Notes under the pieces: model-generated | Seen by the model: only the letters and a program-made list of their open reading frames with translations | The model's database searches: none | What the model was told of the DNA's origin: nothing | From: Bilabrum cf. latius | Taxonomy: Eukaryota | Reading direction: 5' to 3' | Length of the DNA stretch: 64,000 bases | NCBI GenBank assembly: GCA_965178125.1 | Contig: OZ237735.1 | Span: forward strand, 2,480,001 to 2,544,000 | Part shown: positions 40,925 through 57,643 of the stretch, in pieces | How positions within the stretch are numbered: the stretch's first letter is position 1 | Layout: every line of letters starts with the position of its first letter | Made by a program: the position numbers and the translations under genes

Positions 40925-43900
40925 ATGGCAGCCGCTCATGACTTTTAGAAAGGGCATTCCAGCGTTGTGACCGCACCTGATCCCAAGATTGACTTCATCA
41001 AGGATGGTCGCCGCGCCGTGCCGAGCGCAACCGTATCAGGGCTTCCCCTGCAGACCCACGAGCGAATCAAGGACATTCCTCTGCCTCATATCGAAAGTTT
41101 TAACTTTATGCTTGACCAAGGTCTTGAACTGGCGGTGAAGGACCTCATGCCTCGAGAATTCCGGCTGGCACCGGGCACGACCCCGGTGCGCATGTGGATT
41201 GACAATGTAACAATCGACACGCCGAGGAAGGACGAAAGAACTGATGATCCTATGCTGTATCCGTCTGAATGCAGAGAGCGAAAGATGACGTATGGCGCGA
41301 TGATGCGCGTCACGGTCGCATGGCAGATTGGTTCCGGCCCTGTCTCGACGCACATGACTTCGTCCGGCGTGCTGCCAATCATGATCGGAAGCAAGAAATG
41401 CCATTTGTATCGGAAGACTCCGGAGGAACTCGTTGCTATGAACGAGGAGCCCAGCGAGTTCGGAGGGTATTTCATCTGCAACGGCATCGAGCGCATCGTG
41501 CGTATGCTGCAGCTGCCCCGGCGCAACTTCCCGATGGCGATCCAGAGAGGTGCGTTCGCGGGCAAGGGAGCGGCCTTCACAAAAATGGGCGTGCAGATTC
41601 GAAGCGTGCGCAAGGACCAGTCCTCTGTCACGCTTACGCTGCACCACCTCTCGGACGGCGGCGTGCAGCTCCGGTTCACTGTGCTCAAGCGCGAGTTCTT
41701 CGTTCCAGTCGTGCTCGTCATGAGGGCGCTCATGGACGTCACCGACAGGCAGGTATTCGAGGCTATCGTGGGAGGCTCCACGGGCGGCATCGCCGGCCGG
41801 ACCGCGCTCCTGCTGCAGGAGTCCCACGAGCACCCGGTGCTGTCGAGCGCAGAGACGAGGGCCTACCTCGGCAGCAGGTTCAAGCACATCATGGACCCCG
41901 ACGATCTGCTCACAGATGCGCAGGTTGCCACCGTGCTGCTGGACCGGTACGTCCTGGTGCATCTCTCCCCACAGCAGGGCCGCAGCGACGGTGCAGACGC
42001 AAAGAAGTTCGCGCTGCTTGCTCTCATGGTGCGGAAGCTCCTGCTGTTTGCCGAGGGCGACGTCACTGAGGACAACGCGGACGCGCTGGCCAACCAAGAG
42101 CTGCTGACCCCAGGAAACTTGTGCCTCGCGGTGATCAAGGAGATGCTGGACGACCTGCTGCTGGGCGCGGAAGAGATCATGAAGAAGGACGCGCGGATCG
42201 GCAGACTGGTGGTGCCAGGTGCAGTGACCCGGCTCGACAGCTCTGCCTCCTCCGCCGGTTCGCAGGCGTCTGCGGCCACAGGGACCGCATCGATTGCCTC
42301 GGCGGCGACGTCCAGGGGCAGAAGCGGGAGCGACGGCGTGTCGGCGGCGAGGGGTAGCCGGCAGGCCTCCGTAGCCGGCAGCGTGGCTGCTGGCACGCAG
42401 GTCAGCTCGGCGCAGACAGCCGCATCGCGGTACTCTGGGAAGCAGTACGAGGTGGGAAACCTGCAGTACGTGCGCATGATCCTGGACAGGCAGCTAGACA
42501 TTGGCTCCAAGATGTACAAGTTCCTCGCCACGGGCAACCTCGCGTCCAGGTCGGGCCTCGACCTGATGCAGGCCTCGGGGTTCACCGTGGTGGCCGACAA
42601 AATCAACTGGCTGCGGTTCCTCACCCATTTCAGGTCCGTGCATCGAGGCCAGTTCTTCATGGAGATGAAGACGACTGCGGTGCGCAAGCTGCTCCCCGAG
42701 TCGTGGGGATTCATGTGTCCCGTGCACACGCCGGATGGCGCTCCCTGCGGGCTGCTGAACCACCTGACCGCGGCTGCACAGCCCGTGGCCTACCCGTGCG
42801 ACACGACCGAGATCCCGCGGCTGCTGGTTGCCCTTGGAATGCGCGAACTTCGGTCCACCGGTGGTGTGGTGCCGCATGACTGGCTGCCCGTGGTGCTCGA
42901 TGGCCAGGTGCTGGGGTCTTGCCGCGAGGATGTAGCGCGGAGGATCGCGTGGTCTCTGCGGCTGATCAAGTCCGCCGTGTGCTCCGGCTCCGTGTCCGAT
43001 GAGCACATGGACGCGGAGAACGTGGCGGATGCCCAGGGCTCTCTGGGTGACGGGTGCGGCCTCGTGGGCTCTGGGATCCCCAAGGGACCCGCAGAGCTGG
43101 TGGAGCGGCGCAAGCGAGCTATTCACGCCCAGCGCATGCGAAGGAGCCTGCGGGACGCAGTCAGGTGCCTGGTGCGAGGCGCAGTGCGGGGCATGCCCGT
43201 CGGCTCGGTGGTGGCCCAGCATGTCGAGGCTGATCCGCTGCTGCCACCGGACGCGGCGATGGAGGCGGCCGACGAGGATTCGCCCGCACGTGGCGGCAGC
43301 TTGCTGCTGACTGTACCTCGGGAATTGCTGCTCGGCGTTCCTGCCAGCCTTGAGGTGGCCTACCAGCCTTCCGCGAGAAGGCTTGCGGATGGGGCTGTCA
43401 AGCCAGCTGGTGCGGGTGCTGCCTCTGTGGCCTCTGCCGCCATGCAGTCAGATGACGCCAGCAGCGACGACAGCGACGACGACGGCGGCGAGCGTAAGCG
43501 CGGCGACGGCGCTGGAGGCGCTGCAGACGAGGAGGAGGACCTCAGCGGCCCCTTCCCCGGCCTGTTTCTCATGTCTGAGCCCGCCAGGATGGTGCGCCCC
43601 TGCACCCTCTTCGGAGGCATCGCGGCGGCTGCGGCGGACGAGTTCGGGCTGACGGACCCCAAGGTGCCCAGCGGTGCCAGCGGGACTGTCGAGGCGTGCT
43701 TCCGGTCCCTGGCGAAGGGCCGCGGCTTTGAGCTCCTGGGCGCGATGGAGCAGCCCTTCCTGGACATCGCGTGCACCAGGGACGACTTTGCCCAGATCGC
43801 GGGCTGGAGGCCCAACAGCGAGGGCATGCTGGCGCCCGTGCCCGGCAGTCTGCTGTACAGCCACCTTGAGATCAGCCCCATGCAGATGCTCAGCGTGGCC

Positions 43901-56200: not shown

Positions 56201-57643
56201 GCAGGGGGGATCGATTCGCCGCAGCCCCTTGCACGCAGCAGCAGCCGCACCGACCCGGACGAGAGCGGCGGTGCTGGTGGCAGCGGCGAGCAGCCCTTGG
56301 CCCTGCACCACCTGCTCCTTCCCGTCAACATGTTCCAGCCAGGCTACGCGGGCATCGTCAAGGACTACGGCCACCCCGAGGTTCTCAGCAGAGCAGTGGC
56401 ATCCACGCTGCCCACTGATGCGCCCGCCCCTGCGGTAGAAGTGTTCAAGAAGACCGCAGCCAAGCTCGCCGTGGGTGCAGGCGAGGACGAGCCGGTGAAG
56501 GAGGGCGAAGTCCCCGGCGTGACGAGTCGCCAGGTGCACCTGGAGCTGTACCGCAAGCTGGTCCCCAAGTTTGCCAAGGACAGAGAGGCGCTGGCGAAGC
56601 TCGAGGAGGAGGGCACCATTGGCCCGGCCAACCCTCCCTTCACCGTCAAGATCGCTCCGGTCAAGAGGAAGTACCGCGTGATCCGCGACGACGAGTGCAC
56701 CGAGCTAGAGCCCGAGTCTGAGGATCCCGTAGTGCTTGAGGCAGACCAGGTGATCCGCGTCGAGTGGGATCCGGAGAAAGCCGGAGGCAGCCTCGACTGG
56801 TTGCAGCCCTCGGAGCTGTACAAGGGCGGGGGTGCCTTGGATGCGATCATCCACAAGGAGTCGTACGAAGCCGCTAGAAAGAAGGAGATCAAGCGGCTGG
56901 ACATCGTGGATTGCTTCGACGCTTTCACTGTGCGCGAGCAGCTCGGGGAGTCGGACACGTGGTACTGCCCCAGGTGCAAGGAGCACAGGCAGGCGTACAA
57001 GAAGTTCGACCTCTGGACCATACCAGAGGTTCTGGTGGTGCACCTGAAGCGGTTCAAGTACACGGTGTTCTCCAGCTCGTACTCGGCATCCGCGTACCGC
57101 GACAAGCTCAACAACCTGGTCGAATTTCCCATCGCTGAGCTCGACCTGACCCCCTACGTGAAGGGGCCCCAGCCCGGTCCGCACGTGTACGAGCTGTACG
57201 CTGTCAGCGAGCACAGCGGTGGGCTTGGTGGAGGCCATTACACCGCTGTGGGCCGCAACTTCCGCAACAAGAAGTGGTACGACTTCAACGACAGCAGCGT
57301 GCATGGAACGGACGCGAAGAGCGCCGTGTCCTCTCGCGCCTACGTGCTCTTCTACAGGCGCAAGGACAGGGTGAGGATGCGTCCGCTGCTGCCCGAGGAC
57401 GTGAACAAAGACGGGACAGTGACAGAAGCCGCATTCAAGCGCCTTCGTGGCAGTGCTAGCCTGTATGGGAAGCCCGCAGGAGTTGCTGGCGGGGAACCCG
57501 GAGACGCCCCCGATGGTGGGGCGGCAGCGGCGGCAGCCAGCAAGGAGGGTATAGCAGCTGCTGGAGGTTGTGATGACGAGAAGGCGGAAGGCGGGGCAGA
57601 AGAGGAAGAGGCGGGGGAGGAGTTGAAAGAGAAGTTGTCTTGA
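53267..57643 (+). CDS. Ubiquitin-specific protease (USP4/11/15/32-like) with DUSP and Tudor/chromo-barrel-like domains; exons 53267-53491, 53584-53832, 53969-57643
   Basis: [13 protein letters not shown]...PGQVDNS; Cys box [46 protein letters not shown]; His box [20 protein letters not shown]...WYDFNDS. In-frame TAG at 54974, 55424, 55652 and others; ends TGA. Confidence 0.92.

Follow-up and report, generated by a model that had tools for sequence, protein, structure and literature searches.

UAG as a glutamine codon in nuclear genes of a probable stramenopile flagellate

Introduction

What code is in use where long genes are interrupted again and again by one of the three stop triplets, and by that one only? 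The question is raised by a stretch of 64,000 nucleotides (nt) from an assembly labelled Bilabrum cf. latius (GCA_965178125.1, contig OZ237735.1, positions 2,480,001 to 2,544,000 of the forward strand), which as a whole is called the window here, and in particular by three neighbouring genes that encode RPA2 (the second-largest subunit of RNA polymerase I), a large WD40/LysM protein and a USP deubiquitinase. A first-pass annotation, made from the letters alone, had proposed that UAG is read as glutamine in these genes and that UAA is not reassigned. The analysis presented below leads us to consider it very probable that the window belongs to the nuclear genome of a GC-rich, intron-poor, flagellated stramenopile, in which UAG is an ordinary glutamine codon, UGA terminates all the genes seen and UAA does not code for an amino acid. 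The assignment of UAG to glutamine is strongly supported, and the trait is common to the window organism and a second, divergent relative.

In-frame TAG codons in the window

The window is gene-dense, with a GC content of 0.56-0.64 per 4 kb and of about 60% overall. When the standard code is applied, only 7 stop-to-stop open reading frames (ORFs) of at least 400 amino acids (aa) are found, against 23 when TAG is taken as sense, so that standard-code annotation does break the genes, as had been predicted; some of the ORFs of this size merely lie antisense to real genes. The real genes were recognised from Pfam matches and from comparison with solved structures, and codons were counted in a set of 12 genes (10,335 codons) comprising one copy per gene family. 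These genes contain 55 in-frame TAG triplets and not a single TAA or TGA, while their two other frames hold 153 TAG, 49 TAA and 380 TGA. Since TAG alone occurs in frame and the other frames are full of all three stops, the in-frame TAGs cannot be ascribed to chance. Likewise, the off-frame rate predicts about 190 in-frame TGA and about 24 in-frame TAA, and the absence of both indicates that these are not broken genes, pseudogenes or products of sequencing errors. TAG amounts to about 12% of the glutamine codons in the window genes. The interruptions reported by the first-pass annotation are thus real, and every coordinate of them that was checked is correct.

The three genes, with the one mRNA end that carries a poly(A) stretch, are the following.

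40925-45556, plus strand: RPA2, second-largest subunit of RNA polymerase I; 1,543 codons, intronless, ending in TGA
45582, plus strand: poly(A) addition site of the RPA2 mRNA, 26 nt past the TGA, given by a loose end of 22 A in run X5
45623-53086, minus strand: gene with FN3, coiled-coil, WD40 and LysM parts (Pfam WD40, LysM and fn3); 7.46 kb
53259-57663, plus strand: USP4/11/15-like deubiquitinase with a DUSP and a USP domain (Pfam UCH; match to USP15, E 8e-120)

The RPA2 frame, whose ATG is at 40925, matches Rpb2 domains 1, 2, 3, 6 and 7 and the Rpa2-specific domain of Pfam, and its closest solved structure is the RPA2 of S. pombe (E 2e-295). It contains TAG at 40946, 45362 (LDRD-TAG-RSH) and 45443 (CKSC-TAG-TGEGC). 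The last two had been thought to sit within a conserved region; comparison with 120 homologues places them in variable loops, but they do lie upstream of the conserved C-terminus. Because the TAGs precede this conserved C-terminus, they must be read through. With 1,543 residues the protein is longer than the solved yeast and human subunits (about 1,135-1,200), the excess consisting of long Ser/Ala/Gly-rich and acidic inserts between the conserved domains (window 42300-42600 and 44550-44850).

The WD40/LysM gene is the most heavily interrupted of the three. Its exons on the minus strand (53128-52682, 52593-52540 and 52444-45596) join into a coding sequence that starts with the ATG at 53086, finishes with the TGA at 45625-45623 and comprises 2,426 codons, with 18 in-frame TAGs and no other stop, which bears out the earlier statement that this gene of about 7.4 kb is cut more than ten times and always by TAG. 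Sixteen of the TAGs lie in the intronless 6.8-kb exon 3. Orthologues are present in brown algae and in a metagenome contig described below.

The spliced exons of the USP gene give a continuous frame with a DUSP-like N-terminus, ending at the TGA of 57641-57643, of which 57643 is the last base. The TAGs reported at 55424 and 55652 (FGG-TAG-LRSHVKC) are indeed in frame and belong to exon 3, but the TAG at 53951 of the unspliced frame turns out to be intronic. All the introns seen, two in the WD40/LysM gene and two in the USP gene, lie at the 5' end of the gene; they are 88-136 nt long and of the GT..AG type. These two genes are divergent, with about 130 nt between them (53128-53259).

The residue read at UAG

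Homologues from distant organisms are informative only at conserved columns. In the USP protein (134 aligned stretches from 120 homologue matches), the column of the TAG at aa 530 contains Q in 61 stretches, V in 20, T in 14, a gap in 12 and other residues in 27; that of aa 606 contains Q in 56, L in 66, a gap in 12 and no third residue, and that of aa 380 shows a gap in 117. The residues of human USP15 are Q at aa 530 and L at aa 606. In RPA2 the column of aa 1480 is a gap in 109 of the 120 homologues, and that of aa 1507 varies (K 17, Q 12, R 12, gap 46), the Phytophthora rows showing, by eye, C-QT-GE where the window has C-TAG-TGE. The TAG at aa 204 of the protein ODAD1, another product of the window, falls in a variable coiled coil and is uninformative on the residue.

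A close relative proved far more telling. When 901 residues of the WD40 gene were compared with 1.84 billion representatives, 695 matches were obtained, the four best of which are fragments of 151-291 aa with 62-91% identity. One of these fragments (P0373, 88% identical) stops exactly before the position of the window TAG at aa 1071. The three others come from a different contig, a single metagenome contig of 14,591 bases, here called L001 (GC 0.558). L001 has three genes arranged in the order and orientation of the window, namely the WD40/LysM gene, the USP gene and the gene that follows USP at 57700-60312. It has 2 ORFs of at least 300 aa with the standard code and 6 with TAG as sense, all of them terminated by TGA. 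Its WD40/LysM orthologue is a single frame of 2,298 codons with 24 in-frame TAGs and no TAA. The window and L001 proteins are 61.5% identical for the WD40 gene and 72.3% and 57.3% identical for two parts of USP; the USP gene of L001 is split over two reading frames at about position 4500, as if by an intron or a frameshift.

The blocks of the WD40 gene and of USP exon 3 that align between the window and L001 offer 56 sites at which TAG in one stands opposite a sense codon in the other, plus one additional site at which both have TAG. At the 56 sites the partner is Q 29 times, E 6, K 4, T 4, R 3, A 3, H 2, and Y, G, P, M and V once each. Ordinary glutamine codons stand opposite glutamine in the same alignments at a rate of 0.50. 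The pairing of TAG with glutamine (29/56) equals this rate; thus TAG behaves exactly like a glutamine codon. When substitution frequencies taken from these same alignments were used in a likelihood model, glutamine obtained a log-likelihood of -109.6, glutamate -182.6 and lysine -183.0, a lead of 73 units of glutamine over glutamate. In addition, within one 15-letter stretch of USP, L001 has TAG at four positions where the window has Q. The lead in the likelihood model, the pairing at orthologous sites and the prevalence of Q in the column of USP aa 530 all bear out the proposed assignment of UAG to glutamine.

TAG codons in the message

Four runs (X1, X5, X6 and X7), none of them recorded as RNA, were aligned to positions 40000-58500 of the window. 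The contigs of X1 are long and run across gene borders, as expected of DNA. X5, X6 and X7 behave as complementary DNA (cDNA): introns are skipped, one poly(A) end is present and the contigs stop at gene borders (40882/40883-45582, 45596-52444 and 54227-57663). Indeed, the USP introns (53492-53583 and 53831-53966) are skipped in X5, X6 and X7 and retained in X1, and of the WD40/LysM introns (52445-52539 and 52594-52681, GT..AG on the minus strand) both are skipped in X5 and one in X6.

Over RPA2 (40882-45582, with at most one differing letter), WD40 exon 3 (45596-52444, with none) and USP exon 3 from 54227 onwards, the cDNA-like contigs keep the TAGs unchanged and have no joints near them; the only differing letter in all of these contigs, of unstated place, is in a single X5 contig. 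Therefore the TAGs are not intronic, nor does editing remove them from most of the message, and their retention in mRNA, which had been put forward as a check, is what these contigs show. Splicing, editing and a residue other than glutamine, which the first-pass annotation had named as the ways in which its proposal might fail, were each looked at, and none was found to apply.

According to the same contigs, the 3' untranslated region (UTR) of RPA2 measures 26 nt, that of the WD40 gene about 26 nt and that of USP about 20 nt. The RPA2 mRNA (end at 45582) and the WD40 mRNA (end at 45596/45597) are convergent and end 14 nt apart, and the USP contig end (57663) overlaps the contig end of the next gene (57653).

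Termination and alternative readings

UGA is the terminator: all 12 window genes end in TGA, none contains it in frame, and poly(A) is added to the RPA2 mRNA 26 nt past the TGA. A codon-usage score, trained on the genes with Pfam support, places TGA-terminated ORFs in all of the top 30 ranks; the best ORF ending in TAA comes at rank 31 and is antisense to a gene.

Among other ways of reading these genes, the one that survives best gives TAG a dual meaning, of the Condylostoma or Blastocrithidia type, in which it would be glutamine within genes and a terminator near the 3' end of the mRNA. Such a mechanism would be in keeping with the extremely short 3' UTRs (20-26 nt) and with the end of one gene of the window:

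3587-5116, plus strand: 3' exon of a gene for an ODAD1/DC2-like outer-dynein-arm docking protein (Pfam ODAD1_CC, E 4e-63; Chlamydomonas DC2, E 3e-55)

This gene ends GGG TAG TGA (5111-5116), the TAG being immediately before the terminator TGA. Nevertheless, none of the 12 window genes or of the 3 orthologues in L001 needs TAG for termination, since each has TGA at the end of its frame, and from the frequency of TAG one terminal TAG among 12 genes would be expected about 6% of the time. The ODAD1 end and the short 3' UTRs therefore leave termination at TAG a small probability. The ODAD1 frame has neither an ATG nor a counterpart of the first 80 or so residues of Chlamydomonas DC2, and it is likely that at least one further exon lies upstream.

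A second reading supposes that UAA and UAG both mean glutamine, as in NCBI table 6, and that TAA is rare through the high GC content. It would account for the fact that every terminator seen is TGA and none is TAA. If TAA were a glutamine codon, however, 8.6-20.6 in-frame occurrences would be expected in the 12 genes, depending on which A/G-ending ratio is used (CAA/CAG 0.245, AAA/AAG 0.256, GAA/GAG 0.374, TTA/TTG 0.156), and none is found in the 10,335 codons (probability of zero, 2e-4 to 1e-9). In their two off-frames these genes contain the triplet 49 times, and the L001 ORFs have none in frame. Moreover, when TGA is made the sole stop, the real genes lengthen only into upstream non-coding sequence before a TAA is reached. 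TAA is thus not a sense codon, and a table 6 code is very improbable. The earlier claim that UAA is not reassigned is supported in part: UAA is not sense, but none of the 12 window genes or of the 3 L001 orthologues, a small sample, ends in TAA.

The weakest group of explanations, in which TAG stands for another residue (Glu, Lys, Leu and so on), is removed or edited, or marks pseudogenes or assembly errors, can point to glutamate as the second commonest partner (6/56) and to L at USP aa 606 in 66 of 134 stretches, but we give it hardly any credence: every residue other than glutamine lies at least 73 log-likelihood units lower, L is found at USP aa 530 in 1 of 134 stretches, the cDNA-like contigs keep the TAGs without differing letters or joints around them, no in-frame TGA or TAA accompanies them, and a like pattern recurs in the independent contig L001.

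Several observations weigh against UAG being simply a glutamine codon. Many TAG sites fall in variable columns and carry little information singly; the three sites in RPA2 (aa 8, 1480 and 1507), all in variable loops, say little about the residue, and most sites in the WD40 gene correspond to mixed polar columns when compared with nine distant orthologues, including those of brown algae. Even with L001 the partner is not glutamine at 27 of the 56 orthologous sites. The terminal TAG TGA of ODAD1 would also suit occasional termination at TAG, and no gene ending in TAA was seen. Furthermore, X5, X6 and X7 are not recorded as RNA, X5 being flagged 'probably DNA', and contigs lose rare variants, so that a minor edited fraction is possible. 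Finally, the support consists of DNA, cDNA-like contigs and sequence comparison, and no tRNA gene was found in the window or L001 by ARAGORN and Rfam (78.6 kb).

A possible decoding mechanism

According to the available part of PMC5304391, CUA is the only anticodon that reads UAG without reading UAA, and a tRNA-Gln(CUA) is therefore expected. Such a tRNA, one anticodon base away from tRNA-Gln(CUG), would read UAG and leave UAA unread. It would presumably act together with an eRF1 whose recognition of UAG has been lost or weakened and whose recognition of UGA has been kept. As neither component was seen in the 78.6 kb, we infer both from other codes in which UAG alone has changed, again as described in what was available of PMC5304391. 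That paper names GTS, NIKS and YxCxxxF as motifs of the eRF1 N-domain, and for Iotanema a change close to the threonine of GTS is described.

Placement of the organism

The best named relatives of RPA2 and USP are stramenopiles: oomycetes, Nannochloropsis, Tribonema, Hondaea, Cafeteria and Platysulcus. A quick maximum-likelihood tree of RPA2 was built from 43 rows drawn from 120 matches (all that could be named and the best of the others), with 1,138 columns, the LG+G4 model and SH-aLRT (an approximate likelihood-ratio test) as the only branch support. In this tree the query belongs to a clade of 15 rows (SH-aLRT 99) made up of metagenome, Logan and EukProt sequences, its nearest relative being 58% identical. 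The clade stands beside Hondaea, oomycetes and ochrophytes, and inside Cantina, in a single-gene tree with weak deep nodes. The rows identified as Platysulcus, Cantina, Ploeotia, Gefionella, Cladosiphon and Paulinella are all outside it. Placing the organism by RPA2 phylogeny, as had been suggested, thus puts the query among stramenopile sequences. The presence of ODAD1 points to flagella equipped with outer dynein arms, and the organism probably belongs to a heterotrophic flagellate lineage of the stramenopiles.

An affinity with the aphelid Amoeboaphelidium was considered and set aside: the code of that organism is given, in the portion of the literature at hand, as UAA and UAG (UAR) both glutamine, and the nearest RPA2 and USP relatives of the window are stramenopile. 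Two rows of the tree are probably contaminants, a UniRef sequence labelled Hordeum vulgare (P0122), which stands among ochrophyte algae, and one labelled Tiarina, from a ciliate transcriptome, which pairs with a diatom. Many relatives in the query's clade have a long RPA2 as well (1,260-1,530 aa). A search of a viral contig collection found no relatives of RPA2.

Relation to known codes

The code found here is that of NCBI table 15 (Blepharisma nuclei), in which UAG is glutamine and UAA is not; this table reads the 3' end of RPA2 as open. The code type is therefore already known, and it is the stramenopile host that is new as far as the literature search reaches. The first-pass annotation was right in citing the fornicate Iotanema as a case in which UAG alone has become glutamine, but its list was incomplete: the consulted parts of PMC5304391 and PMC11687900 describe Iotanema spirale, and also Protocruzia tuzeti and two lineages of phyllopharyngean ciliates. 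These hosts are metamonads or ciliates, whereas the window comes from a stramenopile with a GC-rich genome. UAA is described as the dominant stop of Iotanema in the available account, and likewise in that of the rhizarian exLh; here only UGA was seen as a terminator, and the contrast with Iotanema is either a real difference or an effect of the small sample.

Other known codes share one or another of these features. UAR is glutamine (table 6) in many ciliates, hexamitin diplomonads, ulvophycean algae, the oxymonad Streblomastix and the aphelid Amoeboaphelidium, going by the sections of the sources at hand. There, as here, stop codons have changed to glutamine and UGA terminates, but TAA is a sense codon there and not here. 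The uncoupling of UAG from UAA is also reported, in similarly partial sources, for exLh (UAG as leucine) and Scotinosphaera (UAG as serine), the residue here being glutamine. In the ambiguous codes of Condylostoma, Parduczia and Blastocrithidia, as far as the passages available describe them, 3' UTRs are short, as they are here; unlike those codes, the present one has no stop codon with two evident meanings, UGA and UAA being absent in frame.

No nuclear code change in any stramenopile was found in the full-text literature, which includes a 2024 stramenopile review available in part and leaves most subscription journals uncovered. The earlier suggestion of an unreported case in another lineage agrees with this negative result for stramenopiles, and a report outside the journals covered is possible. 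Nuclear codes that part UAG from UAA are few (one fornicate, one rhizarian, one green-algal genus and a few ciliate lineages, in the sources as available), and a stramenopile case would represent a further independent origin in a major group. Being common to two lineages whose proteins are about 60-70% identical, the trait is datable and traceable. One can go further and suppose a first change of the nuclear code in stramenopiles, spread over a whole clade of mostly uncultured flagellates, in which UGA is the sole working stop, UAA serves neither as a sense codon nor as a stop (being unassigned or almost so) and the 3' UTRs of 20-26 nt aid the accuracy of termination; we mention this as a speculation that is unlikely to hold in full.

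There are practical consequences. Standard-code annotation breaks most long genes of the window organism, and the proteins of its relative appear in public databases as fragments of 212-291 aa from a gene of about 2,300 codons. Gene-content surveys and phylogenomic sets will under-count and mis-read the clade until table 15 is applied.

Other genes and paralogues in the window

The remaining features of the window are the following.

5085-6242, plus strand: membrane-protein paralogue TMa, which pairs with TMb at 37155-38294
6263-34853, minus strand: tandem array of units of about 3.2 kb, 91-99% alike, with 7 copies of a lineage-specific gene
38576-40726, plus strand: PA-domain RING E3 ligase (Pfam PA and zf-RING_2), with 4 in-frame TAGs and a TGA end
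57700-60312, minus strand: lineage-specific gene with 8 in-frame TAGs and a TGA end, next to USP in L001 too
61534-63999, minus strand: AlkB-like 2OG-Fe(II) oxygenase (Pfam 2OG-FeII_Oxy_2, E 6e-34), with 3 in-frame TAGs and a TGA end, open at the window edge
In the window: a short-chain dehydrogenase gene, identified by domain and structure
In the window: several lineage-specific genes, including the 7-copy gene of the tandem array

The gene at 57700-60312 is 44.3% identical to positions 1-1770 of L001 over 530 aligned residues. Paralogues within the window also carry TAG opposite glutamine codons. The two pairs in which CAG had been noted against TAG, at 5958 (TMa) and 37980 (TMb) and at 10168 and 7224, were both found as described. 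In the gene of the tandem array one TAG is common to all 7 copies, and others stand opposite CAG in two columns or CAA in one; for the window paralogues overall, TAG is opposite CAG in 3 columns and CAA in 2. The 7 copies have no Pfam match and an N-terminal part of varying length, and a 7-kb stretch of the array is duplicated at 99.3% (18333-25330 and 26723-33721).

The plus-strand ORFs of the array (7431-8459 and its six repeats) were excluded from all counts, as they have no Pfam match and may be non-coding. In these ORFs TAG is found where other copies carry GAG, TTG, AAG or CAA, as might be seen in non-coding sequence or in a fast-evolving gene.

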